A stretch of DNA of 64,000 bases from contig JBDSHF010000028.1 in the NCBI GenBank assembly GCA_039918595.1, positions 5,370 through 69,369 on the forward strand. The letters are read 5' to 3'. The notes beneath the pieces were generated by a model. It saw only the letters and a list, made by a program, of their open reading frames with translations. It did no database searches and was not told the origin of the DNA. Shown here one piece after another: positions 12,063 to 33,554 of this stretch; position 1 is the first letter of the stretch, and each line of letters starts with the position of its first letter. The stretch comes from Thermoanaerobaculia bacterium. Lineage in GTDB: Bacteria; Acidobacteriota; Thermoanaerobaculia; Multivoradales; UBA5704. The position numbers and the translations under genes are program-made.

Positions 12063-12065
12063 TCG

Positions 12066-12689: not shown

Positions 12690-12709
12690 AGCAGCAGGAG
12701 AGTGAACGA

Positions 12710-14326: not shown

Positions 14327-14673
14327 ACGTCCGTGTCTTCTATTTGTCTTGTAAAGGTTCGACCGGAGTCCATGCTACCGGGGTAATTCGGCGCTGTCAA
14401 AGCGGCGAGGCGCTCGCGCTCGGCCGGATCGGAAGCAATGCGAGCGTGCAGGCGCAGGATAAAAGACAGGTAGCGGCGGAGCGCATGGCGCGCCTCTTCC
14501 GCTTCCTCCGGCGCAAGGTCGGGAAAGAGAGTTTCAGGTGTGGTTTGCGATTGCATCCGTCGAGCGTACAGGCGCGGTTCGGAGTGGAGAAGTCGCGCTT
14601 CTGTGCCGGAGTCGGCAGCATGGTGCGTATTTGAGGCGGGATATAAGGGCAGTACGCTCTCCCACATGACCAT
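14323..14673 (-). CDS. Hypothetical protein overlapping the recombinase start by 4 nt
   Basis: Stop/start overlap suggests coupling, but its start overlaps the divergent Toprim gene ATG. Uncertain. Confidence 0.3.
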   Translation of the reverse strand: MVMWESVLPLYPASNTHHAADSGTEARLLHSEPRLYARRMQSQTTPETLFPDLAPEEAEEARHALRRYLSFILRLHARIASDPAERERLAALTAPNYPGSMDSGRTFTRQIEDTDV

Positions 14674-16652: not shown

Positions 16653-16684
16653 AACGTCCCCAACGTCCTGATATGCCCTTGGAA

Positions 16685-16716
16685 AACCTGCCGACCCCGG
16701 CAGGTTATTGCGTCTT
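16685..16716 (+). terminator. Putative intrinsic terminator after the helicase gene
   Basis: Hairpin aacctgccg-accc-cggcaggtt followed by a T-rich tract (attgcgtcttgtattt). Confidence 0.4.
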
Positions 16717-16720
16717 GTAT

Positions 16721-16735
16721 TTGACATACTGTCAA
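16721..16735. promoter_or_regulatory. Perfect palindromic operator TTGACA-TAC-TGTCAA upstream of the XRE regulator gene
   Basis: Perfect 6-bp inverted repeat with a 3-bp spacer, 14 nt upstream of the 16749 ATG. The left half doubles as a -35 consensus. Confidence 0.45.
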
Positions 16736-16748
16736 GTATATTGCTGCG

Positions 16749-17108
16749 GTGGCTATGACATTCATACCATTACAGAACTATCTCCGTACCTACCGCAGGC
16801 GCAGTTTTCTCTCGCAGGACGAGGTTGCTTTCCTTTTGGGCGCAAAGACCGGGACACGGGTCACCCGCCATGAGGGAGCTAACCGGATTCCGAAGATGGA
16901 GACGGCGCTTGGCTACGAAGTGCTGTTCGGCGTTCCCTTGCGCGAACTGTTCGCAAGCGAGGCGCACAAGGTCGAAACCATTATCAGACAGCGTGTGCCC
17001 GAGCTGATCCGGGAGGTCGAGGAGAAGGGCGAAAGCAGAGAGAAGCTTTCCTTTCTCCGAAGCCTTTCCGAACGGCTCGCAAAGCATCATGAGAACACTT
17101 GCAATTGA
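16749..17108 (+). CDS. XRE-family HTH regulator
   Basis: SQDEVAFLLGAKTGTRVTRHEGANRIPKMETALGYEVLFGVPLRELF is HTH_XRE-like. Confidence 0.65.
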   Translation: MAMTFIPLQNYLRTYRRRSFLSQDEVAFLLGAKTGTRVTRHEGANRIPKMETALGYEVLFGVPLRELFASEAHKVETIIRQRVPELIREVEEKGESREKLSFLRSLSERLAKHHENTCN

Positions 17109-17571
17109 CCCTACTACGTCCGGCTTCGGCTTCGTGGTCCTCGAAGGAAGCGAGCGCCTGGTTGATTGGGGCCTCGGGCGACTGGAAAAGCCCGAGGATA
17201 CCCTCTTCCTGAAGCGGATCGAAAAGCTTCTTGACCGCGCAGCACCGCAGCTCCTTGTCCTTGAGGACATGGAGGACTCGCGCCGCGGCAAGAGGGCTAT
17301 CGCCTGGACGCGGCTTGCACAGATGTGCGCTGCGAAGCGCGGCATCAGGGTGGAGAGAATCGGCCGCGCGGAAGTGTCAGAGCGCTTTGCTTCCTCGGGA
17401 AAGTCGAGATGGGAGGTCGGCCTTGCGATCTCGCGCTTCTTCCCGGAGCTCGCCCCGAGCCTTCCGAAGAAACGGCGTATCTGGGAGAGCGAGGACCGGC
17501 GCATGACGATCTTCACGGCCGCCTCCTTTGCCTTGACCTTCCTGCGTCGAGCGGATCGAAGTAGAGAGTAG
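17089..17571 (+). CDS. RuvC/YqgF-fold (RNase H-like) putative resolvase/nuclease
   Basis: LAIDPTTSGFGFVVLEG (catalytic Asp in a beta-strand) and LLVLEDMED resemble RuvC-like motifs. Overlaps the HTH gene by 20 nt. Confidence 0.4.
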   Translation: MRTLAIDPTTSGFGFVVLEGSERLVDWGLGRLEKPEDTLFLKRIEKLLDRAAPQLLVLEDMEDSRRGKRAIAWTRLAQMCAAKRGIRVERIGRAEVSERFASSGKSRWEVGLAISRFFPELAPSLPKKRRIWESEDRRMTIFTAASFALTFLRRADRSRE

Positions 17572-17675
17572 CTAGCCTAGCGGTAGGCAAATCAACATCA
17601 TGTCTTTACGGAGAGGACACGGCACAAAGCTCCTCGGGTAACCTACCGGGGAGCTTTGGCGTACCCGACAGATAC

Positions 17676-18890
17676 GTGCGTCTTTGGAAGACGGGAGGAG
17701 ACGGGCACGATACGCCGATGCAATCCGACAACGACATCACCTATTTTGCCCGCATTAATCACCGCAACAAGGGGACGCCTTTCGGCATCCGGAGAGCCGA
17801 CCGCCGCACCCACATGTACGTCATCGGGAAGACCGGCACCGGGAAGTCAACGCTCTTGAAAACCCTCGCACTCCACGACATAGAACACGGCGAAGGGCTT
17901 GCATTGTTCGATCCGCACGGGGATCTTGCGGAGGAGATCGTATCGCTCGTGCCTGCGAACAGACGCGCGGATCTCATCTACCTCAACGTGCCGGATCGTT
18001 CCTTCGTCTGGCACTTCAACCCCTTTGCCGGCATTCCGGAAGAGAAGCACGCTCTTGCGGTGGCGGGCATGGTCGAGGTGTTCAAGAAGCTTTGGCCGGA
18101 CGAATGGGGGCCGCGTCTGGAGCATCTCCTCCGAAACGTGGTCTTCACGCTCCTCGCGGCCGGGGGCAACTTGGGCGACGTGCCCCGCCTGCTGTCTGAC
18201 AAGGATTATAGGAACGCAGCGGTGCGCCGGGTTACGAATGGGATGGTCCGGGAGTTCTGGGAGAAGGAGTATGCCGGGTACTCGCCCGCCTTCCGGGCGG
18301 TGGTGACGGCGCCACTCCAGAACAAGCTCGGAGCGTTCCTCACGGACCCCTTGCTCCACTTGATCCTTACCGGCGAGCGCAGCTCCTTCGACCTCAGGCA
18401 GCTCATGGACGGGGGGAAGATCCTCATCGTCAACCTCGCCAAGGGAAGGATCGGGGAGGGGCCGGCAACGCTCCTGGGGTCGCTCCTGGTATCGCACCTC
18501 TCCCTGGCAGCGCTTGAGCGTGCGGACCGGCCCCAGGAGGAGCGGAGGGACTTCTACCTCTACCTGGACGAATTCCACACCTTCGCCACGCTGACGCTCG
18601 CCACCATGCTCTCTGAACTCCGGAAGTACCGGCTAAACCTCATCCTGGCCCACCAGTATCTCTCCCAGTTGGAGACGGAGATCCGGGATGCGGTCTTCGG
18701 GAACGTGGGGACATTCATCGCCTTCCGGGTGGGGGCCTTGGACGCGTCGACCGTTGCCCGGGAGCTGGCGCCGAAGTTCGAGGCGGAGGATCTCCTGTCC
18801 CTGCCGAACTTCTCTGTTTACCTGCGGCTCATGATCCGGGGGGAGCCGTCCAAGCCGTTTAGTGCTGTCAGTTGTGCACCACTGTCTTGA
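17676..18890 (+). CDS. TraD/VirD4/HerA-like P-loop ATPase (FtsK-HerA superfamily), soluble, 404 aa
   Basis: Walker A GKTGTGKSTLLKTL. DPHGD motif. C-terminal YLDEFHTFATL (Walker B) ... LILAHQYLSQL, typical of TraG-D_C/TrwB-type coupling proteins. No TM helices seen. Confidence 0.65.
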   Translation: MRLWKTGGDGHDTPMQSDNDITYFARINHRNKGTPFGIRRADRRTHMYVIGKTGTGKSTLLKTLALHDIEHGEGLALFDPHGDLAEEIVSLVPANRRADLIYLNVPDRSFVWHFNPFAGIPEEKHALAVAGMVEVFKKLWPDEWGPRLEHLLRNVVFTLLAAGGNLGDVPRLLSDKDYRNAAVRRVTNGMVREFWEKEYAGYSPAFRAVVTAPLQNKLGAFLTDPLLHLILTGERSSFDLRQLMDGGKILIVNLAKGRIGEGPATLLGSLLVSHLSLAALERADRPQEERRDFYLYLDEFHTFATLTLATMLSELRKYRLNLILAHQYLSQLETEIRDAVFGNVGTFIAFRVGALDASTVARELAPKFEAEDLLSLPNFSVYLRLMIRGEPSKPFSAVSCAPLS

Positions 18891-18919
18891 CGCATCTGAT
18901 AAAGGCATGCGATAGTGAT

Positions 18920-19879
18920 GCCATGGCTAAACAAATCGCGGCCCGCTCTCAGGTGACGAGTCCTCACAAGCGTGATTGGCCCTTGGCTATTATTGTATTG
19001 TTCTTTGTCTTTATTTCAGGTTTCACTTTGTCAGCTCAGCCCGCAAGGAAGACTCTGTACACGAGCCAAGATGCCAAAATCGACGAACTGAAGTGTTCAT
19101 CCAAAGACAAGATTTTTCTACCTATTCTTCCGAAAAAGTCAATTTACGGAAAGGTGATCGAACCTGAAGATGTCCTACGCTCGGCGCCTCCTTCGAATCT
19201 TGCAAGTGATGCGGATGAATCTAGGAATTTAGTAGGATATTCGGGACCCTATTACAACGTGGAGGAGCTGACTGGAAATGTCGCCGTGCTCGAAAGGACT
19301 TTATATAACTGGCCGACTAATAATTGGCATGTAACAGGGTTGCTTCGAAATCAAACATGCATGGACATTCGAGTCTCGTCCATAACCGCCCACCTTATCG
19401 GGCCAAGCGGTAAGGAAGTGCGCATTGAAACTGCTACCGTTCCTATTAGTGATTTGAGACCGGGTGAGCCGGCCCCTTTTGATCTAAGTTCTCCAATCCC
19501 AAGAGAGAACGTTGAGCGCGTGGAATGGCAGATTGGATACGCAACAACGACAGAATCGCCCGTTCGGACTTTCTCATTTCTGGTATATCAGTCACGCCAG
19601 ATCACAAGTTCCTCGTACCTGCTTTTCGGCAGTATCCAGAACCTAGGGAGTTCCAGTGCGAGGGGAACTCACATTGTGGCGGCCTGGCTAGATAGTAGCG
19701 GCAGGGTTCGCTATGTAGCATCACCTCTGATTCAACTGGCGACCGGTCCATTGAGTCGAAGAAATAAAATAAATTTGGTGGGCAACGATTTTGAAGATTT
19801 CGTCTTTTCCGCTAATGATCCGCTGCTAGCATCAACGTTGAGTCAGGCAAACGTCGCAATCTGGGGTGTTGCAAATTGA
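18920..19879 (+). CDS. Membrane-anchored hypothetical protein (low-GC cargo)
   Basis: N-terminal TM LAIIVLFFVFISGFTL. Lower GC than the flanks. No motif recognised. Start taken at MAKQIA. Confidence 0.45.
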   Translation, partial: AMAKQIAARSQVTSPHKRDWPLAIIVLFFVFISGFTLSAQPARKTLYTSQDAKIDELKCSSKDKIFLPILPKKSIYGKVIEPEDVLRSAPPSNLASDADESRNLVGYSGPYYNVEELTGNVAVLERTLYNWPTNNWHVTGLLRNQTCMDIRVSSITAHLIGPSGKEVRIETATVPISDLRPGEPAPFDLSSPIPRENVERVEWQIGYATTTESPVRTFSFLVYQSRQITSSSYLLFGSIQNLGSSSARGTHIVAAWLDSSGRVRYVASPLIQLATGPLSRRNKINLVGNDFEDFVFSANDPLLASTLSQANVAIWGVAN

Positions 19880-22800
19880 AATATTCAGCCTGGGCCTTAT
19901 CAGTGATCGTCCTAATTCTCTCGGGAGAAGGACAAGCGGCAGCGCATGACTTTGGCAGTATACCCTATGACGATGTGGTCTACGCGGCCCAAGTCTATAA
20001 TCAATGCAGGGATACTCTCCCGACTGACAAATTGGTTGCTTACATGCTCGCGCCGACATGGCGAGAATTAACCAATGGCAATACCAATCTAACGCCATCC
20101 CCTATGACATTGGGCAGAGGGGATAACGATTTGGATCTATATCCAGATGGTCAGTCCGGCGCAACTGCTCCGCACCGTCGCGCTTTTTGGCACCCGGGTA
20201 TTGGTCTCTGGCAACTCGATGATATCGGTCTTGGAAAAGACATTAGCACAGAGAAATTCAACTCAAGAGACGCGGCTCAGGTTGCAGCTACCATAATCTC
20301 AACTCGATATTGTAAATCGCCAACAGCTGCGTATATATATGGAGGTATCTGGATTGCTTGTGGGGCGGATGGGAGTCTTTGTCAGGATATTGTCAACCAA
20401 CTCTACAACCCTAATGGCCCTCCAGCGTATACAGTTGGTCGCGACAATAGTGTTGGTCGGTACGGTGGTTCGCAGTTGCATACGTGTAAACTAGCGGGCG
20501 ACACTAGGTATTTCGATTGCCTATATGTTAAGCCTGCCAACCCAGATGGAACACGAGCCAACGCCGAGGGTACTATATCAAGTTGGATTTACCAGCCATT
20601 AGAGGGTCTTTATCCCCCCAATACACCGTCTCCGCTAACAATGCCATTTTATGTCTATCGAGAGGATGCAACTGGAGGGGGATTCGAGTGGCGATATTGG
20701 CTAGCTGCTGATACAGGCTTCGGAAAAGATTATGCTGCTAGACGAACCTATGGCGCCAACTCTCGGGCAGGTCTCCATTGGGTTTCAGATGCGTCAACCA
20801 GCTTAGCTCTCTGTGATGTTACCCTTACACGCGGTGCCTGTGGAGGTATTCCCCAGGCACCTTCGATATCCAACATAGCACAGCTATCGTACGACGGGTC
20901 GCCACTTTCAGTCGGCGCTATTACACAAGCTGGAACCGTTATACTCCGAGGTACACTTGCTGGTTCTCAGGGTCAACAAGTACGAATTGAGCTAGAGGTT
21001 CGGAGAATCTCTGACCCGTTCTTAGGTGAACCGAATTACCTTGGAAACTACGTCACCAGTGGGAGCGTAAGCAAGTGTGTCACGGGACTGCAAGACGCCA
21101 AATATCATTGGCAGGCACGAGTGAGGAGCGATAGTGGACAGTTCAGTCAATGGCTTCAGTTCGGGGGAAACTCTGAAGCCAGTCCTGATTTCGAGGTACA
21201 GGCTAATAGATGTGCTATTTGCACTGCGTCTGGCGCATCTGCTGTGGTCACAAAGTATGGCCGTATTGGAATATCCTGTGGCGTACCCCTGGCTGTAGAA
21301 CTTGCAGCGTCTGTCAACAATGGTATTACCCTGCTTAATGGTGTAAGTCTGACGGCATCGGTGAGTGGTTCGGAAACCGGCACTATAAATTACACGTTTT
21401 ATTGTAATCGTCCCGATGGAGGAATTGATGTTAGATCTGGATGGATTGCCAAGTACGATGGGATTTCGGCGAATCCGAAAACAGCATATGACGTATGTGA
21501 CTATGTTGGGCCGGGTATTTATACTGCAAAGGTGATCGCTGAGCGTGGATCAAGCGCAGCTGAATCACGGACACTCATCACCGTTTCGGCACCTTCAACG
21601 CAAACTCCTTCGGTTACAACGAGTGGCTCGGCAAATGTGACCCAAAGTAGTGCGACTCTCAGTTTATCTGTTAATCCAAACGGGTCTGATACTTCAGCCT
21701 GGTTTGATTGGGGGACGAGCACCTCCTTCTGCTGTAACACGAGTCAGCAGACAGTCGCGGCTAGTTCGGGAGCGTCACTGCTTAGTATGACCGTAGGCGC
21801 CCTTCAATGCGACACAACCTACTACTTCCGAGCCCACGCACAAAGTGTAGGCGGAGAAGCCACAGGAAGCACCTTGTCATTCCGAACGGGTGCATGTGGC
21901 AACGGCCCCCAAACCGTTCAACTTGTGCCTGATCCAGGCTTCGAGCAAGGAAACAATGCGTGGTGGGTAGCGAGCCCAGCGTTCTATATCGATCATGCTC
22001 CCACCTTCCCGAATCCGCGCAATGGAAGTTACTACGCTTTCCTTTCCACGTCCAACGGCTCGGCGGGCAACAATTTGCAGGGCGGCGTGATATCGCCCCA
22101 AGTCACCATTCCTTCAAACGCAAGCGGAGCTGAACTGCGCTTCTGGTATAGCGTTTCGACACAGGAGACGAGTACATCAATCTTTGATACCCTCAAGGCT
22201 TACCTAGTTAAGCCGGGGAATCAAGCGACACTCTTTGCAACCATCTCAAACTTGGACAATTCTGGCACAACGTATAGAGAGAAGGTTGTCGGCATTCCCT
22301 CCTCATTTTTCGGCGGCCCGGTGCAGATCTTTTTCTCTGGCGCAACAGACGGTAGCTTGCCTACCGTCTTCCGCGTAGACGATGTGACGCTTTCTGCCTT
22401 CATCCCTGCGACGGCCGGTTCGCCTGTCGTTAGCACGGGGTCTGTTGACCAAATTACCTCGTCTAGCGGACGGCTCAGCATGACTGTCAACCCCAACGGT
22501 GCCGACACTCAGGTGTGGTTTGATATAGAAACGAACAATCCGCCGAACTCTGAGACAGAGCACGTAGCTATAGGAACCGGGCAGCAGGCCGAGGGCGTTA
22601 GCATTAGTGTATTCGGCTTGCGATGCGACACGACCTACTACTATCGGGCTGATGCCGTCAATTCGTACGGATCACAGCTAGGCTCTGTGAGTTCTTTTAG
22701 AACCAGTACTTGTCCCGTTCAAGCCCCCTCAGTATCAACCACTGTTGCTGACAGTATAACGTCCACCTCTGCGCGTTTGGTTGGGAGCGTCAATCCAAAC

Positions 22801-24789
22801 GGCTTCTCAACAACGGTTTGGTTCGCTTGGGGAACCGATACGACGCTCGGAAATTCTACGCCTAGCCAGAACGTCGGCAGTGGTAATTCTTCAGTGAGCT
22901 TCGCGGCTACACTCAATAACCTTCAGTGCGGCACTACCTACTACTACCGTGCCAAGGGGCAGAACAGCGGCGGGCAGACATCCGGTGCGCTCTACAACGT
23001 AACAACTTCCCCTTGCAGCCAAATACCCGTTATAACGATAACGGCAAGCGATCCGACTGCGACTGAAAATCCCATGACTACGGGGGAGTTTCTCATCCAG
23101 CGAACAGGAGATCTTTCTAGTGCGTTATCGGTGGCATACACCGTGGGAGGAACCGCCATCGTTGGGGTAGATCACACGCTTGGAGGCGGGAGCGTGACCA
23201 TCCCCTCTGGATCAGCCTCGACTACTTTGACCGTCTTTCCGATCGACGATTCACTGGTCGAACCAGATGAGACCGTCGTTGTGACGCTTCAGCCGCAGTC
23301 CCAATATACAGTTGGTACCCCAAGCGGTGCCACTGTTACAATTACGAGTGATGATACGGGATGTGCCTTAAGTGTCATAAGGCCGCAAGGTGGAGAGGTG
23401 TGGACAAAAGGATCACCTCATACCGTTCAGTGGAGTGCGAACTCTGATTGCGTGGACTTTGCCTTTATTCTATACAGAAATGGTAACTTTGATGGCTACC
23501 TGACAGGTTCTCTGTCCGGGAGCCAATTTAGCTGGACACCTCCGGCGTGGCTCGTACCAAGTCCCGGGCTGCAGATTGATGTTGTAGGATTCAACGCTGA
23601 TGGCACTGGTGTTTCGGCGCGTTCAAACAACTTTACGCTTATCAACCCTGCGGTCCTTCCCGCAGTCATATTCCAGGACACTGTAGAGACTAACGATGAG
23701 TTCAACTACTACTCCGAAGGATGGGGAGTGACAAATTTCACCTCGCACAGCCCCACGCATTCGCGCGCGGATAGTCCTGCTTTCTACGGCAACAACACGA
23801 ACAGCTCACTTATAACACCTAAAATCGATGTTAGTAGCCGCACCTCCCTCTCTCTCAGCTTCTGGCATCGCTTTAGTCTTGCGGACTTCGACTTCGTGAA
23901 CGTCTGGGTTAAGACCGATCAAGGAGATTGGATCTTCTTGCAGGGCTTTACCGGAATCCAATCTGACTGGCGACAGGTCACAATTAACCTGAACGCTTTC
24001 CTTGGCCAACCGTCTGTTCAGGTCGCTTTTCAGATAGTATCTGATGATGCTCTGACTGCCGATGGCTGGTATATCGACGACATCGTATTGAGTGGGGCGA
24101 GTGACACTAATAAAATTTTCTCTAATGGTTTTGAGTCCGGTGATCTTTCGGCATGGTTGGTGGCGCCGCCGAGCGACGGAAGCATCGTTTCTGTTTTGGA
24201 GCAGGGTGTCCCAGGGCAACCCGGAAAGGATATTTGGACAACGAGCAACTATTCATTTGCGCCGGGCGGCAACACGCCGGGAGGTGGGTTGGACAACGAA
24301 GAGCTTGTAGTAGGAGGATGGGGCGACAATTACTACAGCCTCCTTGAGTTCAATCTCGCAGGGCTTCCAAGTCACGCATCCTCGGCAGTGCTCAAGCTCT
24401 TTTGCTACCGGACTCGTGCTACCGAAACGATTGGCATGTATGTCGAGCGTATAACCCAGATATGGGATTGGCGTACCCAAGGCACCGGCCGAGATAGGGA
24501 GAGGTTATGGTGGGCAGACCAACCGCAGTCACTCAATTGGATAGGCTTGCCGGTCACGAAGCCGACGGTAGGGCAGTGGTACTCAATCGACATCACGGAT
24601 CTCTATAACGCATGGCAGAACGGATCTGTGCCAAACTACGGCATCAAGCTCACACCGGTTGATAATGGTAACGAGTGGAGCGAGTTTTACAGCGCAAACT
24701 ACTCTGATCCGGCCTTCCGGCCTCGGCTCGTAATTCGGCCGGATCAATCTACCGTTAAACGTTCTCCTCTATCTAGGAAGCCACGGTAG
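19876..24789 (+). CDS. Giant secreted multi-domain surface protein (signal peptide; at least four tandem FN3-like repeats; Calx-beta-like domain; lectin/MAM-like C-terminal region)
   Basis: TTG start overlapping the upstream stop. Signal peptide MKYSAWALSVIVLILSGEGQAAA. Repeats containing SxVxPNGxxTxxWFxWGT...CDTTYYYRA occur four times. A Calx-beta-like block appears at ITITASDPTATENP...VVVTLQP. GC content is markedly lower than the window average. Confidence 0.8.
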   Translation: MKYSAWALSVIVLILSGEGQAAAHDFGSIPYDDVVYAAQVYNQCRDTLPTDKLVAYMLAPTWRELTNGNTNLTPSPMTLGRGDNDLDLYPDGQSGATAPHRRAFWHPGIGLWQLDDIGLGKDISTEKFNSRDAAQVAATIISTRYCKSPTAAYIYGGIWIACGADGSLCQDIVNQLYNPNGPPAYTVGRDNSVGRYGGSQLHTCKLAGDTRYFDCLYVKPANPDGTRANAEGTISSWIYQPLEGLYPPNTPSPLTMPFYVYREDATGGGFEWRYWLAADTGFGKDYAARRTYGANSRAGLHWVSDASTSLALCDVTLTRGACGGIPQAPSISNIAQLSYDGSPLSVGAITQAGTVILRGTLAGSQGQQVRIELEVRRISDPFLGEPNYLGNYVTSGSVSKCVTGLQDAKYHWQARVRSDSGQFSQWLQFGGNSEASPDFEVQANRCAICTASGASAVVTKYGRIGISCGVPLAVELAASVNNGITLLNGVSLTASVSGSETGTINYTFYCNRPDGGIDVRSGWIAKYDGISANPKTAYDVCDYVGPGIYTAKVIAERGSSAAESRTLITVSAPSTQTPSVTTSGSANVTQSSATLSLSVNPNGSDTSAWFDWGTSTSFCCNTSQQTVAASSGASLLSMTVGALQCDTTYYFRAHAQSVGGEATGSTLSFRTGACGNGPQTVQLVPDPGFEQGNNAWWVASPAFYIDHAPTFPNPRNGSYYAFLSTSNGSAGNNLQGGVISPQVTIPSNASGAELRFWYSVSTQETSTSIFDTLKAYLVKPGNQATLFATISNLDNSGTTYREKVVGIPSSFFGGPVQIFFSGATDGSLPTVFRVDDVTLSAFIPATAGSPVVSTGSVDQITSSSGRLSMTVNPNGADTQVWFDIETNNPPNSETEHVAIGTGQQAEGVSISVFGLRCDTTYYYRADAVNSYGSQLGSVSSFRTSTCPVQAPSVSTTVADSITSTSARLVGSVNPNGFSTTVWFAWGTDTTLGNSTPSQNVGSGNSSVSFAATLNNLQCGTTYYYRAKGQNSGGQTSGALYNVTTSPCSQIPVITITASDPTATENPMTTGEFLIQRTGDLSSALSVAYTVGGTAIVGVDHTLGGGSVTIPSGSASTTLTVFPIDDSLVEPDETVVVTLQPQSQYTVGTPSGATVTITSDDTGCALSVIRPQGGEVWTKGSPHTVQWSANSDCVDFAFILYRNGNFDGYLTGSLSGSQFSWTPPAWLVPSPGLQIDVVGFNADGTGVSARSNNFTLINPAVLPAVIFQDTVETNDEFNYYSEGWGVTNFTSHSPTHSRADSPAFYGNNTNSSLITPKIDVSSRTSLSLSFWHRFSLADFDFVNVWVKTDQGDWIFLQGFTGIQSDWRQVTINLNAFLGQPSVQVAFQIVSDDALTADGWYIDDIVLSGASDTNKIFSNGFESGDLSAWLVAPPSDGSIVSVLEQGVPGQPGKDIWTTSNYSFAPGGNTPGGGLDNEELVVGGWGDNYYSLLEFNLAGLPSHASSAVLKLFCYRTRATETIGMYVERITQIWDWRTQGTGRDRERLWWADQPQSLNWIGLPVTKPTVGQWYSIDITDLYNAWQNGSVPNYGIKLTPVDNGNEWSEFYSANYSDPAFRPRLVIRPDQSTVKRSPLSRKPR

Positions 24790-24792
24790 GAT

Positions 24793-25635
24793 GTGCTACC
24801 TGGATTGACTGATAAGGAACGGCAAGAGTATGTTCTAAAGTCAAATCTCGATGTCGCAGAATGTAAATTCCTCTATTTGAACTCTCTCCCGGGTCTTGCT
24901 AGTCTCATTCGTACCAACCGAAGTACGGAGGATCCCCGCATGCCCCGACACTCTGACGGAGTAGTGCTGTCCAACTGGCATACCCTCTTCGAGGACTTCT
25001 CGACCTCGACCCAGGACTTCTATGCCGCTGTTGAAGCCGCGATTGCAGACCGGAACCTCCCAGACATCAAACTCTCCCGCGTCTTCTTCAGTGAGGGCGG
25101 CATCGGTTCCGCCAAGCGCGAATACCTCCGCATCGAGCGCCAGCGGATCGTCTTCGACATCTGCTCCGCGCCATACGGCAAGGGGCACTTCTTCTCCTGG
25201 TGGCTTGCCAAGATCCCAGCGAAGTATGGTCTTTTCATCGTTCTCGGTATTGCCCTCGGATGTCTTCCACTCTGTCTCATCTTCCTTGGCATCCTCTTGA
25301 AAATCTTCGAGGGCTCCCTCTTCGGCATGGTCGTCCTTCCCTTCATCTCCCTCCTCGTCATCCCGGCGATCTTCCTTCTCCTCGGTCTCGGCGTCGAGCG
25401 AGGGCTCATCGGCGACGAGGAATGGGTCCTCTCCATCCCCTGGGTCGGATACCTGTACTACGTAGTCTTCAACCCTGTCTCATACTACCGCCTCGACACC
25501 GCCATGATGTTCCGCGACTCGATACGCTCGGCCGTGAACGAGGTCTTGAACGACCTGCGGGAAGAGAAGGGCCTGCGGCTCCTCGGGGACGAGGAACTCC
25601 GGCCCGACGCCGACGAGGGAGAGGCCACGGCGTAG
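24793..25635 (+). CDS. Multi-pass membrane protein (4-5 TM helices), unknown function
   Basis: Hydrophobic segments GLFIVLGIALGCLPLCLIFLGILL and VVLPFISLLVIPAIFLLLGLGV. Lies immediately upstream of the ATPase-nuclease gene, with a 6-nt gap. The true start may be the internal MPRHSD. Confidence 0.55.
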   Translation: MLPGLTDKERQEYVLKSNLDVAECKFLYLNSLPGLASLIRTNRSTEDPRMPRHSDGVVLSNWHTLFEDFSTSTQDFYAAVEAAIADRNLPDIKLSRVFFSEGGIGSAKREYLRIERQRIVFDICSAPYGKGHFFSWWLAKIPAKYGLFIVLGIALGCLPLCLIFLGILLKIFEGSLFGMVVLPFISLLVIPAIFLLLGLGVERGLIGDEEWVLSIPWVGYLYYVVFNPVSYYRLDTAMMFRDSIRSAVNEVLNDLREEKGLRLLGDEELRPDADEGEATA

Positions 25636-25641
25636 CGGGGT

Positions 25642-28600
25642 ATGGCGAGCCGGGTTGAGGAGCGCACCCACCATTTCTTCCGGTGGGAACGGCGGGGCCG
25701 CGGACGGCGGAGCTTCCTGTCTCCCGTCTCGCTTGAGCCGCCCTTCACTCCCTTTTGGTTCGTGAAACATGCCGCGCCCGCCCTCGATGACGGCAGGCAT
25801 CACACCTTCTTGTCAGCCTTCCTCGAACGGTTCTCTGGTAAGCGGGAGGCGCCGCCACCTGAGCCCGAGATCGAAGAGCCGGAGGCGGAACCCGGAGACG
25901 AGGGGGAGCCTGTCGAGCTACGGGTCCTCCTGCCGCAGGAGCTTTCCGTCACGGCGGCGCTCTCCGAAGGCTTCCTCAAGAGCCTTGCGGCCGTCCATAC
26001 GCCGCTCTCGCTGGAACTGGTCGGCATAGGCGGAGAGGTGGCGGTTTCCCTCACCAGCCGCAGGACGGCGGTGCCGATCCTCTCCTCCCAACTGCGGGCC
26101 TTCTTCCCGGAGGTACGCCTGGAGGAGGAAGAAGATCTCCTCCTCACTGCCTGGGAGTCGGGAGTGGAGGGTGTCTTCGGCGCCGTCGAGCTTGGCCTGT
26201 CCCGCGAGTTCATGCTACCCCTCGGCCGTCCGCGAAACTTCACGCCCGATCCCTTGACCGCGATCGTGGGAGCGCTTGCGGAGACTGCGCCCGGCGAGGT
26301 TGTCATCGTCCAGGTGCTCTTTCAGGGAGTGCGGTCGCCGTGGGCGGAGAACATCGTGCGGTCGGTGACCACACCCTCCGGCGAGCCCTTCTTCGCTGAC
26401 GCTCCCGAGGTCACCAAGCTTGCCCGCGAGAAAGTATCCGCACCGCTCTTCGCCGTTGCCGTTCGCGTCGTGGCGCGGGGAGCAACCGAGGAGCGGCTGT
26501 GGACGCTTCTCTCGGGTAGCCTTGGCGCGCTCGTGGGCGCAACGAGAGGTGACAACGAACTTGTGCCGCTCGGGACGGATGACAGTACCGAGATCTTGGG
26601 AGACGTGCTCCTGCGCAGGACCCACCGGAGCGGCTTTCTCCTCTCGCTTCCCGAGCTGCTTCCCCTGGTTCACCTTCCGTCGCCCTCGATCCCCGGCATC
26701 GCCCGGGACACCGGCCGCACCAAGCTCCTCCCCGAGGAGGCACAGGAAGGCGGGCTCTTCCTCGGGTACAACGTCCATGCGGGAAGGGAGCGCGAGGCGC
26801 GGCTCTCGACGGACGCGCGCCTCCGCCACGTGCATGTCGTGGGGGCTTCGGGCACCGGCAAGTCAACGCTTCTGGTGTCCATGATCCTCCAGGACATTGC
26901 CGCCGGGCACGGCGTGGGCGTCATCGACCCGCACGGCGATCTCATCGACCACGTGCTCGGCGGGATTCCTGAAAACCGAGCGGCGGACGTAATCCTCTTT
27001 GACCCGGCCGACCCGGAGCATGTCGTCGGCTGGAACATACTCTCCGCGCACTCCGAAGCAGAGAAAGACATGCTCTCCTCGGACCTCGTTGCGGTCTTCC
27101 GCAGGCTTTCGACCTCCTGGGGCGACCAGATGACGGCGGTCCTTGCGGGCGCGATTCTCGCCTTCCTGGAGTCAGAGCGGGGCGGCACGCTCCTCGATCT
27201 GCGGCGGTTCCTCGTGGACCAGGGCTTCCGGCGGGAGTTTCTCGCCACCGTCCGCGACGAGTATGCCCGAGACTTCTGGACGAGAGAGTTTCCGGTGCTC
27301 AAGGGCTCGCCTCAGGCGTCGATCGTGACCCGGCTCGATACGCTTCTCCGGGGCAAGCTCGTGCGCGGGGTGGTGACGGCCAGAGACAAGCCCCTGGACT
27401 TCCGGGGAGTGGTGGACGACCGGCGGATCTTCCTGGCGAAGCTCTCGCAGGGTGCCATCGGCGAGGAGAACGCTGCGCTCCTGGGGTCGCTTCTCGTCTC
27501 GAAGATCCACCAAGTATGCCTTCTGCGGCAGGATCAGGCCGAGGGTTCGCGCCGGCCGTTCTTCCTCTACCTCGACGAGTTCCACAACCTCGCGACGCCC
27601 TCCATGGCGACGCTCTTCTCCGGGGCGCGCAAGTACCGCCTCGGGGTGACCGTCGCGCATCAGGATCTCTACCAGCTCCACGCCTCCGTTCCCGAAGTCG
27701 AACGGGCCGTCCTCGGGAACGCATACACCCGGATCTGCTTCCGCCTCGGCGACGAGGACGCCCGGACCTTATCTGCGGGCTTCTCCTTCTTCACGGCAGA
27801 CGACCTCGGGAACCTCGACACCGGAAGAGCGATCTGCCGGGTGGGCAGGAAGGAGCACGACTTCAACCTCTCCGTCGTGCCGATGGAGCATGGAGACCCT
27901 GAGGCGCATGAAGCGAGGCGCCGGGATGTCCGGGCGCGGTCGCTTGCGAGGTGGGGCGCGCCGCGCTCTGCGGAGCCGCCGGCGGCTCCCGCACCTCCCG
28001 AGAGGCCACGAGCGGAAGCACCGCCACGAGTCGAAGTGCCACTGGCGCAGCCGCAACCCAAACGAGAGACAGCCCCGCCGCCTTCGGCTCCGCCCCCTCT
28101 ACCCGCACAGGTGCAAGCTCCCGAGCCACCTCCGGTCGAACCGCGCCGCCCGGGCAAAGGCGGGCCGGAGCACACGTATCTCCAGGAACTCATCAAGCGG
28201 TGGGGAGAGGAGAAGGGCTTCCGGGCAGTGGTCGAGGAGCAGATTGCGGGCGGCAGGGAAAGCATAGACATCGCCCTCTACCGGGGCGACCTCAAGATCG
28301 CCTGCGAGGTCTCGGTCACGACGCCTCTTGAATATGAGGTCGGGAACGTGGAGAAGTGCCTTGCGGCCGGATTCGGGACGGTGGCGGTCGTGTCTCTCAA
28401 GAAGGCCCGACTCGCGAAGCTCGGAAAGCTCCTCGACGAAGCCATTCCTTCCGAGAGCCGGGCCAAGGTCCACCTATTCACGACGGAGGAGTTGCTCTCA
28501 TGGCTTGAGGGGCAGCCGGTCCACGAGGAGGTGAAAACTGTCAGGGGATGGAAGGTCAAGGTCAAGTACCGCGATCCGGGAGATGACCGCATGAAGCGCG

Positions 28601-28650
28601 TCGCCGAGATCCTGGCCCGGAGTACGAGCGGGCTAGAGAAGGATGGGTAG
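25642..28650 (+). CDS. Large TraD/HerA-like P-loop ATPase fused to a Pro-rich linker and a C-terminal nuclease-like (possible PD-(D/E)xK) domain
   Basis: Paralog of 17676-18890: HVHVVGASGTGKSTLLVSMI, DPHGD, FFLYLDEFHNLATP...VTVAHQDLYQL. Unique roughly 330-aa N-terminal region. Linker PAAPAPPERPRAEAPPRVEVP.... C-terminal block ESIDIALYRGDLKIACEVSV resembles a restriction-endonuclease-like core. Confidence 0.7.
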   Translation: MASRVEERTHHFFRWERRGRGRRSFLSPVSLEPPFTPFWFVKHAAPALDDGRHHTFLSAFLERFSGKREAPPPEPEIEEPEAEPGDEGEPVELRVLLPQELSVTAALSEGFLKSLAAVHTPLSLELVGIGGEVAVSLTSRRTAVPILSSQLRAFFPEVRLEEEEDLLLTAWESGVEGVFGAVELGLSREFMLPLGRPRNFTPDPLTAIVGALAETAPGEVVIVQVLFQGVRSPWAENIVRSVTTPSGEPFFADAPEVTKLAREKVSAPLFAVAVRVVARGATEERLWTLLSGSLGALVGATRGDNELVPLGTDDSTEILGDVLLRRTHRSGFLLSLPELLPLVHLPSPSIPGIARDTGRTKLLPEEAQEGGLFLGYNVHAGREREARLSTDARLRHVHVVGASGTGKSTLLVSMILQDIAAGHGVGVIDPHGDLIDHVLGGIPENRAADVILFDPADPEHVVGWNILSAHSEAEKDMLSSDLVAVFRRLSTSWGDQMTAVLAGAILAFLESERGGTLLDLRRFLVDQGFRREFLATVRDEYARDFWTREFPVLKGSPQASIVTRLDTLLRGKLVRGVVTARDKPLDFRGVVDDRRIFLAKLSQGAIGEENAALLGSLLVSKIHQVCLLRQDQAEGSRRPFFLYLDEFHNLATPSMATLFSGARKYRLGVTVAHQDLYQLHASVPEVERAVLGNAYTRICFRLGDEDARTLSAGFSFFTADDLGNLDTGRAICRVGRKEHDFNLSVVPMEHGDPEAHEARRRDVRARSLARWGAPRSAEPPAAPAPPERPRAEAPPRVEVPLAQPQPKRETAPPPSAPPPLPAQVQAPEPPPVEPRRPGKGGPEHTYLQELIKRWGEEKGFRAVVEEQIAGGRESIDIALYRGDLKIACEVSVTTPLEYEVGNVEKCLAAGFGTVAVVSLKKARLAKLGKLLDEAIPSESRAKVHLFTTEELLSWLEGQPVHEEVKTVRGWKVKVKYRDPGDDRMKRVAEILARSTSGLEKDG

Positions 28651-28662
28651 GTAGGTACTCTC

Positions 28663-28700
28663 CGGCGCCGCATCCCGCCACAGGGGCACCTTGTGGCGTC
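28663..28700 (+). terminator. Putative intrinsic terminator after the ATPase gene
   Basis: Hairpin cgccacagg-ggcac-cttgtggcg followed by tctttcc. Confidence 0.4.
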
Positions 28701-28791
28701 TTTCCGGCTACCATCGGCGCGCGTACGGTGGGCGAAGAGTGTTCTTCACACCTTCAACCCTCCGCGAGAGCGGATCTCTTTGGAGACAAGG

Positions 28792-30375
28792 ATGATGCGT
28801 CCCCGAACCCCTAACAGCGAAGGCAAACGGGTGGGGCTCTGGATCAGAGTCTCGACCGAAGACCAAGCACGGGGCGAGAGTCCCGAGCACCACGAAGCGC
28901 GCGCCCGGATGTATGCCGAGAGCAAGGACTGGACCGTCATAACGGTCTACCACCTCGAAGGCGTGTCAGGGAAGTCGGTCATGCAGCACCCCGAGGCACA
29001 GCGGATGCTTGCCGATGTCAGGCAAGGGTCGATCTCCGGCCTCATCTTCTCCAAGCTCGGCCGCCTAGCCCGGAACACGACCGAGCTACTGGAGTTTGCC
29101 GCGATCTTCGAGCAGCACGGTGCCGACCTCATTTCCCTCGGCGAGTCGATCGACACCTCCACTCCCGCCGGCCGTCTCTTCTACACCTTGATCGCCGCCA
29201 TGGCGACCTGGGAGCGAGAGGAGATCGCCTCTCGGGTCGCGGCTTCCGTGCCTATCCGGGCCAAGCTCGGGAAGAAGCTCGGCGGAGCCGCCCCCTACGG
29301 CTACGCCTGGAAGGACGGCAAGCTCGCCCCTGAAGAGAAAGAGGCGCCTGTCCGGAAGCTCATGTATGAACTCTTCCGACAGACCAAGCGCGTGCGGACG
29401 GTTGCCCGGCTCTTGAACGAGCAAGGATACCGGACCCGAAACGGAAGCCTCTTCACCCATGTCACGGTGCGGCGCCTCATCCTCGACCCCACCGCTAAGG
29501 GGGTACGCCGCGCCAACTACACCAAGAGCCTGGGTGACGGGAAGAAGTGGAAGCTCAAGCCCGAAAGCGAATGGGTAGAGCTGCCAGTCCCCCCGATCGT
29601 GGACGAAGCGGTCTGGGAATCGTGCGCCTCGATCCTCCGGGAGAGGGCGAACGGCCGCAAGCCCGGTCCCCGGACAGTCCACCTCTTCACTGGCGTTGTC
29701 TTCTGCCATTGTGGGCGGAAGATGTACGTGCCCTCGAACAACCCTAAGTGGATCTGCCAGGGGTGCCACAACAAGATCCCCATTCCGGACCTTGAGGCCG
29801 TCTTCGAAGAACGGCTTCAGGCGCTCGTCTTCTCCCCTGAGCAGTTTGACGTCCACCTTCGGGAAACAGAGGCGACGATCGAGGCAAAGCGGGAGGAGCT
29901 GGCAGTGCTACTGCGGGAAGAAGACTCCGTAAAGGCTGAGTCCGACAAGCTCTACCGCCTCTACCTCGAAGGGGGCCTCCCGGTCCCGGCCTTTCGGGAA
30001 AGGAACGATCCTCTGGAGGAGCGGAAAGAGCAACTGCGGCTCCAGATTCCCCGGCTCAAGGGAGAGATAGACTTCCTCGTGATACGGCAGCTCGGAAGTA
30101 CAGAGACTCTTGTCGAGGCCCAGACCCTCTACGAGAAGTGGGCGATCCTCTCCTTCGGGATCAAGCGGGAGATCGTCGAAACCATCGTGGAGCGGATCGA
30201 CGTCGGGGTGGGCGATGTCGAGATCACCCTCTCTTGCGACATACCCGAGCCCCCCGACTTCCCCCTTTCCCCTGAACTCATGGCAGAAGGGGAACGAATC
30301 TCCAGGGATTCATCGCGGCGAGCAGGGAAAACCGGGCCGGGAAGACCAGCCGGGCGCGGGCCCGCACGACGCTGA
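28792..30375 (+). CDS. Large serine recombinase (second copy); 3' end fused across the insertion junction into comM-derived sequence
   Basis: [11 protein letters not shown] catalytic motif. Resolvase and recombinase domains. C-x2-C...C zinc ribbon ([10 protein letters not shown]...CQGCHNK). Start chosen at MMRPRT. The last roughly 23 codons overlap the truncated comM on the opposite strand. Confidence 0.9.
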
Positions 30376-31351
30376 CGTTCCCCTCTTCGAGCGGCTGGCG
30401 CAGGGCTTCCAGGGTGTCGCGCCGGAATTCCGGGAGCTCGTCGAGGAAGAGGACGCCGTTGTGGGCCAGGCTCGCCTCGCCCGGCCGCGGGTTGCTGCCG
30501 CCGCCGATCATCCCCGCCGTGCTGGTCCCGGTGTGCGGGCTGCGGAACGGCCGCTGGCGCAGCAGCCCCGCCGGCGGCTCCTCGGCCACCAGGGAGTGGA
30601 CCTTGGTGACCGCGATCGACTCCGCCAGGGTGAGCGGCGGCAGGATCCCCGGCAGGCGGCGGGCGAGCATGGTCTTCCCTGAGCCTGGAGGCCCGAGGAA
30701 GAGGAGGTTGTGGCCGCCGGCCGCGGCCACCTCCAGAGCCCGTTTCGCCATCTCCTGCCCCCGCACCTCGGAGAGGTCGGGCGCCCCCATCAGCAACTCA
30801 ATGGAAAAGGGGGGAGCCGGGACGGCCGGCAGCTCCGCCTCACCCGTAAGGTGCTGGACGGCCTCGGCAAGCCCCCGGAGACCGAAGACCGGGACGGCTT
30901 CGAGGGCAGCCGCCTCGGCGGCGTTGGCCGCCGGCAGCAGGACCTCGCGGACTCCCATGCGGCGCCCGAGGTCGGCGATGGCCAGACCGCCGCGCACGGA
31001 GCGGATGGCGCCGTCGAGCCCCAGCTCGCCGCAGATCAGCCGCCCGGCGAGGGCGTCCTGCGGGATCTGCTCGTAGGCCGCGAGCATCGCCAGGGCAATG
31101 GCGAGGTCGAGGTGGTTGCCCTCCTTGCGGAGGTCGGCCGGCGCGAGATTGATGATGATGGACTTGGGTTCCAGGTCGAAGCCGCAGTTTTTGATCGCGG
31201 CGCGCACCCGCTCGCGGCTCTCGCGGACCGCGGCATCGGCAAGTCCCACGATCTGAATCTGCGGGAGTCCGTTCTGGACGTCGACCTCTACCTGGACGGG
31301 GCGTGCTTCGATCCCCCATGGCGTGGCGGTGGTGGCTCTGGCTAGCATCAA
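30278..31351 (-). pseudogene. comM: comM/yifB (Mg-chelatase-like AAA+ ATPase) truncated after about 350 aa by insertion of the mobile element
   Basis: N-terminal Lon-like domain. Walker A GPPGSGKT. Walker [11 protein letters not shown]. Ends ...AAMNP followed by unrelated residues. The Mg_chelatase C-terminal domain (CPCG motif) that normally follows is missing. comM is a well-known integration hotspot. Confidence 0.65.
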
Positions 31352-31461
31352 CCCAGATAAGACGTAAAATCCACCTCCAATCTTCTTCGCCCTAGAACGG
31401 CGGGGGTTTGCGGACCCCCTTTTGATCTACTTCGAAACTTCATGAAACGAAAGAATAGACT

Positions 31462-32619
31462 GTGAACGTCCTCGTCGTCGCCACCAAAGCGCCCTGGCCG
31501 GCGATCGACGGCGGGCGCTTCCTGCTCCTCAACACCCTCCGGGGCCTTACCGGAGCAGGCTGCCACGTCACGCTGGTGGCACCGGTCGATCCGGCGCGGT
31601 TCGAGCTCTCCGAGGTCGCTCGCGAGCTCTCCGCCGTCTGTACACCGGCGCTGGTCCCGGCGTCTCCCTTGCCCCCCGCGGTGGCGCTGCTCCGTTCCGG
31701 CGGAACGCCGTTGTCGATCGCCCGCCACTCGCTCCCCGCCGTGCGGCGTGAGGTGGAGCGCCGGATCGCGGCGGAGCGCTTCGACCTCGTCCACGCCGAG
31801 CAGCTCCAGGCGCTGCCGCAGGCCGAGCCCGCCTACGCCCGGCGGATTCCAGTGGTGCTGCGGGCGCAGAACGTGGAGAGCGATCTCTGGGCGGCCACGG
31901 CCCGGCAGGGGAGAGGGCCGCGGGGACTCCTACTGCGCCGGGAAGCGAAGAAGCTGGCGGCCTGGGAAGGGAGCGCGGTCCGCCGGGCCGCCGCGACTCT
32001 GGCGCTGACGGCGGAGGACGCGGCCCGATTGCGCGAGTTGGCCGGCGGAGAAGGGCGAGTCGCGGTCGTCCGCGCGGCCTTCCCGGATCTCCCTCCGGGA
32101 ACGGGACGGCTGGAAGGCGATCCGGCGGTGACGGTCTTCGGCAGCCGAGGGTGGCTGCCCAATGAGGAGTCGACCGCCTGGTTCGCCGCCGAGGTCTGGC
32201 CCGCCGCGCGCGCCGAGTCTCCTGGCGCGGTCCTCCATCTCTTCGGATCAGAAGCGCCCGGCGCCGTTTCACACCCTTCGCCGGCCGATAGCAGCGAGGT
32301 CTACGCGCCGGGCTCGATCCTCGCCGTCCCCCTGCGCATCGCCTCCGGGGTACGTATCAAGATCCTGGAAGCCTGGGCCCGCGGCATCCCGGTGGTCGCG
32401 ACCCCCGCCGCCCTCGCCGGCCTGGAGGCGGAGGATGGGCGGGAGGCCCTGGTCGCCCGCGATGCAGGAGAGTTTGCCGTCGCGATCGGCCGGATTCACC
32501 GCGATCCCGCGCTCGCCGCGGCGCTCGTCGAAGCGGGCCACCGGGCGCGGCGGGAGCGGCATGATCCAGGAGCGGTGGCGCGGAGGTTGATGGAGGAATA
32601 TGAGAAGGCGGCGGGTTAA
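31462..32619 (+). CDS. Glycosyltransferase family 1 (GT4-like)
   Basis: C-terminal RIKILEAWARGIPVVATP...GLEAEDG (E-x7-E region) is typical of GT-B GT4 enzymes. Confidence 0.7.
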   Translation: MNVLVVATKAPWPAIDGGRFLLLNTLRGLTGAGCHVTLVAPVDPARFELSEVARELSAVCTPALVPASPLPPAVALLRSGGTPLSIARHSLPAVRREVERRIAAERFDLVHAEQLQALPQAEPAYARRIPVVLRAQNVESDLWAATARQGRGPRGLLLRREAKKLAAWEGSAVRRAAATLALTAEDAARLRELAGGEGRVAVVRAAFPDLPPGTGRLEGDPAVTVFGSRGWLPNEESTAWFAAEVWPAARAESPGAVLHLFGSEAPGAVSHPSPADSSEVYAPGSILAVPLRIASGVRIKILEAWARGIPVVATPAALAGLEAEDGREALVARDAGEFAVAIGRIHRDPALAAALVEAGHRARRERHDPGAVARRLMEEYEKAAG

Positions 32620-33554
32620 AACTCCCCCACCAGCGAAATCTCCACCTCCAACCGATATCCCGTCTCCTTCTCGACCCCCTTCTGGCAACGGGCGATCAGC
32701 GCCCGCACGTCCGCCGCGGTGGCGCCTCCGGTATTGATGAAGATGTTGGCGTGGCGCTGGGTGATCATGGCGCCGCCGATGCGCGTGCCCTTCAAACCGC
32801 ACTGGTCGATCAGGCGGCCGGCACCGATCCCCTCGATCTTCTTGAAGATGGAGCCGGCGCTCGGCTCGGTGTCCAGGGGCGGGTGGCGCTCGTGGCGCCA
32901 CTGGAGGTTCTCCTCGACGATCCGCCGCATCCGCTCCGGGTCCTCCGGCGCTAGCTGAAAAGTGGCGGCGAGCACCACGTCCGGCCGGTGGTGGAGGACC
33001 GAAGTGTCGTAGCCGAATTCGAAGTAGTCGACGCCCACCGTCCGGCGCTTCCCCTCCGCGGTCAGGATCTCCGCTCCCTTCGTCACCTCGGCGATGAACA
33101 TCGTCCGCTCGCGGGCCGGGGCGGGGGAGAGGAAATGAAGGTTCTGCCAGAGCGCGCCCCCCACGGTCGAGGGGATGCCCACGTAGTGCTCCAGCCCGGA
33201 GAGGCCGTGCGCGGTCGCCGCCTCGATCAGATCGGGCCAGACGATCGCTCCGCTCTCGGCGCGCACCGTCCCCTCCCCGGGGGAGAATTCGAGATGCCGC
33301 GCCAGGTTCCGGATCACCAATCCCCGGAACCCGCGGTCGCCGATCAGGATGTTGGCGCCCAGCCCGAGCAGGAAGAATGGAACTCCGTGATCGCGGGCGG
33401 CGAGGAGGGCCGCCGCCAATTCGTCCGCCGTCGCCGGCTCATAGAAGAGGTCGGCCGGACCGCCGATCTTGAAGGTGGTATAGGGGGCCAGGACCTCGCC
33501 GGTCCGCACCCGGTCCGGTCCCAGCGCCCGGCGGAGGGCCTCGTACCCCTTCAC
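32616..33554 (-). CDS. murB: UDP-N-acetylenolpyruvoylglucosamine reductase
   Basis: FAD-binding N-terminus with KIGGPADLF and GLGANIL. MurB C-terminal domain GIPSTVGGALWQN. Confidence 0.85.
   Translation of the reverse strand: MKGYEALRRALGPDRVRTGEVLAPYTTFKIGGPADLFYEPATADELAAALLAARDHGVPFFLLGLGANILIGDRGFRGLVIRNLARHLEFSPGEGTVRAESGAIVWPDLIEAATAHGLSGLEHYVGIPSTVGGALWQNLHFLSPAPARERTMFIAEVTKGAEILTAEGKRRTVGVDYFEFGYDTSVLHHRPDVVLAATFQLAPEDPERMRRIVEENLQWRHERHPPLDTEPSAGSIFKKIEGIGAGRLIDQCGLKGTRIGGAMITQRHANIFINTGGATAADVRALIARCQKGVEKETGYRLEVEISLVGEF

Follow-up and report, generated by a model that had tools for sequence, protein, structure and literature searches.

A large serine recombinase element in comM of a Thermoanaerobaculia bacterium, with attP probably inside the recombinase reading frame

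The window analysed here is a stretch of 64,000 nucleotides from a Thermoanaerobaculia bacterium (assembly GCA_039918595.1, contig JBDSHF010000028.1) that contains a disrupted comM (yifB) gene. With a probability of about 0.8, positions 1–30302 of the window make up the greater part of a ~31-kb integrative element that was inserted into comM by a large serine recombinase (LSR) and whose attP lies within the LSR reading frame. The LSR would insert elements of this family at the DNA encoding the MNP|CPCG motif of ComM, with strand exchange at a single TG, and the insertion would split comM into the 5' 348 codons found in the window and the 3' 159 codons predicted to the left of it. This split should abolish the ComM helicase function until the element is excised. 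Insertion of an LSR element in comM is ordinary, and the split recombinase gene is the modestly novel part. The features of the element are listed in Table 1.

The comM fragment and its junction with the element

The comM of the window is a gene fragment. The open reading frame (ORF) called on the minus strand, 30278..31351, carries a Lon-like ChlI domain, Walker A motif GPPGSGKT and Walker B motif VLFLDE, and reaches position 30278 by way of 8 element-encoded codons, WRFVPLLP*. In this ORF, Pfam matched ChlI (PF13541, E = 2e-42) and Mg_chelatase (PF01078, E = 1.5e-70), the latter only over profile positions 1–159 of 207, and did not detect Mg_chelatase_C (PF13335). Of the features of ComM/YifB proteins, the N-terminal Lon-like ChlI domain and an AAA+ module with both Walker motifs were found, and the complete AAA+ module, the Mg_chelatase_C domain and the full length of about 507 aa were not. 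The nearest relatives are YifB/ComM proteins of Thermoanaerobaculia; the untruncated ones are, with few exceptions, about 507 aa long, and the top match reaches 93% identity. When this 507-aa protein (P0001) was used in tblastn against the window, residues 1–349 aligned to 31348..30302, the identity to full-length ComM proteins ending at Pro348. Residues 350–507 had no credible match anywhere in the 64 kb, and the C-terminal 167 residues (340–507) of full-length ComM alone gave chance matches only. About one tenth of the closest ComM homologues also break directly after AAMNP, with short tails similar to the WRFVPLLP of the window.

The original prediction, made from the sequence of the window, had described comM as intact for about 350 aa and as ending after AAMNP, and both Pfam and tblastn agree with it (residues 1–349). 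It had placed the break at a domain boundary, which is corrected here, as the break falls within the AAA+ module, with the last 50 or so positions of the PF01078 profile missing. A contiguous full-length ComM C-terminal domain, which would have contradicted it, was not found in the window.

Alignment with an uninterrupted comM, which the original prediction had proposed, defined the junction. The intact comM of the close relative L002 aligns with the minus strand of the window through ...GCCGCGATGAATCCnTG and then diverges completely; at the DNA level, the alignment departs directly after ATGAATCCnTG. The attR junction, predicted at roughly 30300, is thereby placed at 30303/30304. The Cys349 codon of comM begins with the crossover TG, and the insertion lies at the DNA for the conserved MNP|CPCG motif. 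The element-derived P half-site of attR, GGCAGAAGGGGAACGAATCTC, is found at 30282–30302, directly before CA, and the comM-derived B half-site, GGGATTCATCGCGGCGAGCAG, at 30305–30325.

The P arm occurs once in the window and agrees with the P-arm consensus of the relatives, ..GCAAAAGnGCAACGnAnCnn-CA. In two complete relatives, TG is the sole sequence common to attB, attL and attR, and the attP rebuilt from the joined element ends has inverted arms of 14–16 nt around CA, for example GCAGAAAGGGAACG-AATCGT-CA-TCCCTG-CGTTCCCTTTCTGC. CA and a similar P arm are present at the junction in all 22 integrated relatives examined, as well as in the window. A second P or P' arm was sought across the window with up to 3 mismatches, and only attR was recovered. 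The short attP and attB, the imperfect palindrome of attP and the crossover at a 2-bp non-palindromic dinucleotide are those of an LSR system.

The LSR gene converges on comM, and the two ORFs overlap at 30278–30375. The LSR ORF spans 28693..30375 on the plus strand, and an independent assembly (L001) calls a protein of 526 aa from 28795. Pfam matched the serine-recombinase catalytic domain (Resolvase, PF00239, E = 9.4e-29), and the motif WIRVSTEDQ is present in the translation. It also matched the recombinase domain (PF07508, E = 8e-19), which is accompanied by a zinc ribbon (CHCG...CQGCHNK) and, after it, a heptad-rich stretch corresponding to the embedded coiled coil; Zn_ribbon_recom was matched weakly in close relatives. 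All of these parts, from the catalytic domain through the zinc ribbon CHCG...CQGC and the coiled coil, are encoded by element DNA (28795–30303). Over the junction the frame reads ...ATC TCC|AGG GAT..., and the codons from 30304 to 30372 are comM antisense, 23 codons followed by TGA at 30373–30375.

These 23 codons match the extent of read-through given in the original prediction. They were rejected as a conserved feature: among the relatives, the position of the LSR stop relative to CA ranges from -20 to +23 codons, the tails that are present being 2 to 23 codons long, and this variation makes the tail incidental. The original prediction had called the arrangement a fusion; the read-through it described is real, and it missed that the window shows just one half of a recombinase gene that has been split. 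The native 3' end of the LSR gene, encoding two helix-turn-helix (HTH) domains, would be located at the opposite end of the element.

The attP site and the reading frame of the recombinase

When the circular forms of the two complete elements were reconstructed, the LSR frame crossed attP without stops and ran into the HTH ORF of the left end, staying in frame over about 140 codons in both. The LSR is thus 657 aa in the excised form versus 537 aa in the integrated form of one element, and 653 versus 531 aa in the other, and Pfam found two HTH_3/HTH_31 domains in the part added on excision. Contiguous LSR-HTH genes also occur naturally in assemblies, with lengths of 616–678 aa. Those at L021 (678 aa) and L030 (676 aa) contain the palindrome around CA inside the ORF, with arms of 14/14 and 13/14, respectively; the palindrome at L046 is weak. 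Among the closest 50%-identity cluster representatives of the window LSR, six of ten are 637–674 aa long, and the four of these six that were scanned with Pfam all carry C-terminal HTH domains. The HTH genes annotated at the left ends are 92 aa in element a and 95 aa in element b. The 92-aa gene, the one whose start was examined, begins at a GTG within the first HTH and is therefore without a natural start of its own. The LSR core, comprising the catalytic and recombinase domains, the zinc ribbon and the coiled coil, is complete before attP, so that integration takes off an accessory domain and not the enzyme. At the level of sequence, these reconstructions show for the relatives that attP lies in the LSR reading frame and that the LSR encoded by the circular form would be about 650 aa long with two C-terminal HTH domains.

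A mechanism may be proposed for this arrangement. In the circular element, the LSR of about 650 aa would consist of the core, an attP-encoded linker and a tandem Cro/C1-type HTH. In the integrated element, the gene is probably cut at attP, leaving a core of about 510 aa with an arbitrary comM antisense tail at the right end and the HTH module stranded on the opposite, left side. Binding of element DNA by the HTH domain could serve autoregulation or favour the integrative synapsis, and its loss at integration could serve as a built-in sensor of the integration state that helps to set directionality or expression. The two isoforms would then differ in activity or regulation, and the truncated core together with a putative directionality factor would perform excision. 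We regard such a pair of state-specific isoforms, with HTH loss as the sensor, as a tentative possibility.

Several observations weigh against the overall interpretation of the window. In a Ramlibacter/Burkholderiaceae clade, plus L016 and L023, the LSR stops 8–20 codons before the crossover (L016, L023, L097, L098 and L101, of which L097 is Ramlibacter lithotrophicus RBP-1); the open frame into the HTH module is clade-specific, and HTH read-through is therefore neither universal nor required for recombination. At L030, a full-length gene with an apparently intact attP inside the ORF (9944–11974) is located on a 341-kb contig, and this element either resides on a large replicon and has not used this attP, or is held by another integrase. 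The attL and the comM 3' fragment of the window's own element were not seen, so its excised form cannot be reconstructed, and the one HTH module copy that the window contains has decayed. The ORF family scans gave no directionality factor, relaxase, VirB4, capsid or terminase.

It is also conceivable, if unlikely, that the continuity of the frame over attP has no functional meaning, with the HTH protein a separate regulator and the read-through noise in GC-rich DNA. The early LSR stops in the Ramlibacter/Burkholderiaceae clade, L016 and L023 fit this explanation, as do the completeness of the canonical LSR domains without the tail and the placement of a 92–95-aa HTH gene at the left end by gene callers. 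It is harder to reconcile with about 140 in-frame codons in both reconstructed circles, with an HTH gene call that begins at an internal GTG within the first HTH, and with contiguous genes of 616–678 aa in which the palindrome inside the ORF is clear at L021 and L030 and weak at L046. Long forms also predominate among the closest cluster representatives.

Extent, cargo and type of the element

Table 1. Features of the comM-inserted element. Positions are those of the window, except in the last two rows, which give positions on the contigs of the two relatives.
Feature	Position	Strand	Remarks
Integrative element, part inside the window	1..30302		left end outside the window; composition
Left-most element DNA	1..827	-	5' half of secreted CHAP-domain gene (3-410, exits window) and upstream region
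Decayed internal extra copy of LSR C-terminal HTH module	845..1115	+	HTH1 end and HTH2
Second large serine recombinase (LSR2), different family	12710..14326	-	Pfam Resolvase, Recombinase, Zn_ribbon_recom
Second TrwB/TraD-like ATPase, 404 aa	17676..18890	+	Pfam
Conserved hypothetical protein, 280 aa	24793..25635	+	third member of conserved LSR-proximal module
ATPase related to VirD4/TraD/TrwB coupling proteins, 1002 aa (DUF8128 in relatives)	25642..28650	+	Pfam TrwB_AAD_bind, T4SS-DNA_transf, TraG-D_C
Large serine recombinase (LSR, LSR1), integrated truncated form, 526 aa	28795..30375	+	Pfam; L001 gene call
attR site	30279..30328		P half-site (element) and B half-site (comM)
Crossover (central) dinucleotide of attR	30303..30304		CA on + strand, TG in comM sense
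comM (yifB) 5' fragment	30304..31348	-	codons 1-348 and G of crossover TG
Complete relative Ga0672836_0000281 (element a)	comM 5' 3789-4835; comM 3' 30727-31173		element ~25.9 kb
Complete relative Ga0190265_10000018 (element b)	comM 5' 96617-97747; comM 3' 131124-131525		element ~33.4 kb

The GC content of the element is 0.48–0.67, versus 0.64–0.72 in the right host flank. At the left of the window, positions 3..827 correspond to L010 8956..8138 with 84.7% nucleotide identity, which is the interior of the complete element a, and positions 1597..2332 correspond to L010 7594..6857 in the same order and orientation. Beyond the CHAP gene, L010 contains a small HTH ORF (9534–9812), attL (TG at 9968) and the 3' part of comM, so that attL of element a is located about 1.0 kb past the point matching window position 3. 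From this colinearity, attL of the window element would lie about 1.0 kb to the left of position 1, which gives an element of about 31.3 kb. We therefore predict that attL and the 3' 159 codons of comM are found about 1 kb to the left of position 1, that the element is about 31 kb long, and that its P' arm resembles CGTTCCCCTTCTGCC. The original prediction had stated that the comM 3' remnant was absent from the left part of the window, and tblastn indeed gave no match in the 64 kb. As explanations it had offered an element larger than 30 kb, which the colinearity with L010 now favours, or a tandem of two elements, which gained no support.

For extension to the left, GTDB genomes and JGI metagenomes were scanned for exact 42-mers, with no match; the Logan contig carrying the same element stops at window position 1029, and the one protein recovered with the incomplete CHAP sequence, a match of 77%, was unrelated. 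The ComM C-terminal fragment P0131, 97% identical, was considered as the missing half and rejected, as it comes from a different sample and from an oppositely oriented relative (L094).

The HTH remnant near the left edge was recognised from frame translations compared with the excised LSR tails and from tblastx matches to L010 9534–9806 and to L011. An in-frame stop directly precedes it, its frame is shifted by a net -1 near 998–1003, and the independent assembly ends within it, at 1029, 26 nt past the frameshift. The remnant and a DUF2188 gene (1170–1400, minus strand) stand in place of a 211-aa gene of the complete relative, which suggests past recombination between related elements.

It appears quite unlikely that the element is a locked-in remnant in which the left end, together with attL and the comM 3' fragment, was deleted or rearranged, leaving comM permanently dead and excision lost. 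This explanation would account for the lack of a comM 3' fragment in the window, for the truncated and frameshifted state of the only HTH module copy there, and for the break of the independent assembly at 1029; decayed relatives such as L007 are also known. However, both flanks of the HTH copy (3–827 and 1597–2332) are colinear with the interior of the intact element a, which makes the HTH remnant internal and means that the element extends beyond position 1, and the LSR ORF is intact, as is the conserved module.

The module next to the LSR is shared widely in the family. Homologues of the 1002-aa ATPase, whose NCBIfam matches were far below the cutoffs, adjoin the LSR in 41 loci, making it a conserved LSR partner, and homologues of the 280-aa protein are found at the same position in 23 related loci; the 280-aa protein itself had no family match in the scans made. 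The 404-aa ATPase has a counterpart of 85% identity in the complete element a (L012). Other cargo is variable and includes TPR proteins, a GNAT acetyltransferase, a weak ArdC-like protein and LSR2, and a gene for a SymE-like toxin is located at 10124–10294. A secreted protein of 1637 aa (19876–24789, plus strand) with MAM, Calx-beta, CBM96 and Ig-like domains is encoded in a block of 48–54% GC; this block, which the closest complete relative lacks, appears to be cargo gained recently.

LSR2 bears on whether the 30 kb consist of two independent elements in tandem, one for each serine recombinase gene (12710–14326 and 28795–30375). The two LSR genes would fit such a tandem, and the internal element-end fragment at 845–1115 suggests past recombination between elements. 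However, LSR2 shares only 23% identity with LSR1 and is encoded in the opposite orientation, no second P arm or att-like site is present in the window, and the total length fits single elements of the family, 25.9–33.4 kb. Moreover, LSR2 and the adjacent ORFs of 246 aa, which has a weak primase-like match, and 478 aa (14540–16652) recur in L018, L015 and L039, where an LSR1 homologue is a few kb away, as expected of cargo. The tandem was rejected on these grounds as improbable, LSR2 being unrelated to LSR1 and recurring as cargo; the LSR2 trio (12710–16652) may be a nested or hitch-hiking module.

An assembly chimera at the comM/LSR junction can be dismissed: although the source data are metagenomic, the Logan contig of SRR26386590, an independent assembly, equals window 1029..32667 with one mismatch and is identical over the junction, and over 35 loci, drawn from many samples and phyla, have the same junction.

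The preferred reading of a single LSR element leaves its type to be considered. No relaxase or VirB4 family was found above threshold, as would be expected for an integrative and conjugative element (ICE) or a mobilisable one, and the conjugation-related matches consist of the two distant VirD4/TraD/TrwB-like ATPases and the weak ArdC-like match. A PHROGs scan of the 10 larger ORFs in the right part of the element gave no capsid, portal, terminase or tail protein; its matches were phrog_5156 (unknown function) and a weak terminase-like P-loop similarity of the ATPases. In IMG/VR, the LSR family has one distant relative only. Assignments as a prophage, a canonical ICE or a defence island were thus unsupported by Pfam, PHROGs, NCBIfam and PADLOC scans of the main ORFs. 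The element is an unclassified integrative element that is possibly transferred by an unconventional DNA-translocase route, in which the coupling-protein-like ATPases would serve transfer.

Related elements and known systems

The same layout, with the comM 5' part, a converging LSR, a TrwB/TraD-like ATPase of about 1000 aa and a protein of about 230–280 aa, recurs on the contigs of relatives. The LSR family was found in comM of Acidobacteriota, Gemmatimonadota, Alpha- and Betaproteobacteria, Bacteroidota and Verrucomicrobiota. To the right of comM, the window encodes GT4 (31462–32619) and MurB (32616–33554), which match the comM flank in relatives. Gene order near comM varies: in a comparison of L002 with L010/L012 and window 31462–33554, SecA and Peptidase_M23 were located upstream of GT4-comM in L002 and downstream of comM in L010. 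This difference points to a local inversion or rearrangement near an integration hotspot.

Insertions of the opposite orientation at the same comM dinucleotide were also observed, in sister lineages. In L094, L033, L108 and L116, the LSR adjoins the 3' part of comM in sense orientation, and protein P0242 (648 aa) is an in-frame chimera of LSR and ComM C-terminus. The LSR of L094 is 73% identical in DNA to that of the window and its P arm is of the same type. At the two junctions read, L094 (1040–1260) and L033 (2100–2260), the central dinucleotide is TG in the LSR sense. The polarity of serine integrases is set by the central dinucleotide alone, and a flipped dinucleotide in sister lineages, giving opposite insertion and an LSR fused to the ComM C-terminus, matches this family rule.

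Three further loci show other states of comM and of the element. L036 contains an intact comM homologue (4961–6427, minus strand) 1.6 kb upstream of an LSR that adjoins a second, disrupted comM 5' fragment (9550–9669); the intact copy could be an element-borne replacement or a local duplication. At L007 (11014–12600), a comM junction and LSR-like DNA of 72% nucleotide identity are present with no LSR called and an ORF annotated on the opposite strand, and this is probably a decaying, immobilised copy. The left part of the 33.4-kb relative (L011, 1–7700) encodes SIR2-STAND, SMODS, a caspase-helicase fusion and a SymE toxin, so the element family can carry defence-type genes.

According to Durrant et al. 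(2022), LSRs insert in the Mg-chelatase/ATP-dependent-protease gene more often than in any other, with 12.4% of the predicted site-specific LSRs choosing it, and their targets are enriched in competence genes (PMC10083194). The elements described there are alike in recombinase class, target gene and disruption of comM (PMC10083194); they differ from the present one, which is from Thermoanaerobaculia and carries unclassified cargo of neither phage nor canonical ICE type. In the part of the literature covered, including a term search of PMC10083194, no description was found of attP inside an LSR frame or of a detachable tandem-HTH C-terminus.

In the integrase of myxophage Mx8 (intP/intX), attP is located in the 3' part of int and integration alters the C-terminus of the integrase. 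This enzyme is of the tyrosine type, with a tRNA-linked attB, and is not known to exchange an HTH module. To our knowledge, the integrase genes of Listeria A118, B. subtilis SPbeta and the skin element are not split by attP. These elements, inserted in comK, spsM and sigK, respectively, resemble the present one in their use of an LSR, in short att sites with a 2-bp crossover, and in insertion inside a coding sequence that is possibly restored on excision (PMC3556126, PMC7192596). Regulated excision of the present element would, by contrast, be hypothetical. The 'suicidal' tyrosine integrases of the SSV1 type, from archaeal viruses and plasmids, also have the site in their own gene, which is fragmented by integration (PMC8371274). 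There, the enzyme is a tyrosine recombinase and is destroyed by the split (PMC8371274), whereas a serine recombinase is cut here after its complete core and only the two HTH domains are lost. The present LSR has attP within the gene and is not a tyrosine recombinase, and is thus not a member of the SSV type; an LSR with two isoforms would be the non-suicidal serine-recombinase counterpart of the archaeal split integrase.

The AbaR/Tn6022-type islands move by a Tn7-like transposition mechanism and not by an LSR. According to a 2025 review, comM is disrupted by many mobile elements, including these islands in Acinetobacter (PMC12378983). The insertion described here adds a case from the little-studied Thermoanaerobaculia to this well-known targeting of comM, and it fits the view that mobile elements disable a host function able to remove them. 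The att sites are defined, at about 50 bp each with a TG core, and are directly usable, and natural variants with a flipped core and reversed insertion are available. If the split-gene arrangement is functional, it would provide serine integrases with a novel means of sensing the integration state, and this would bear on the control of directionality in LSRs, which are used as genome-engineering tools.

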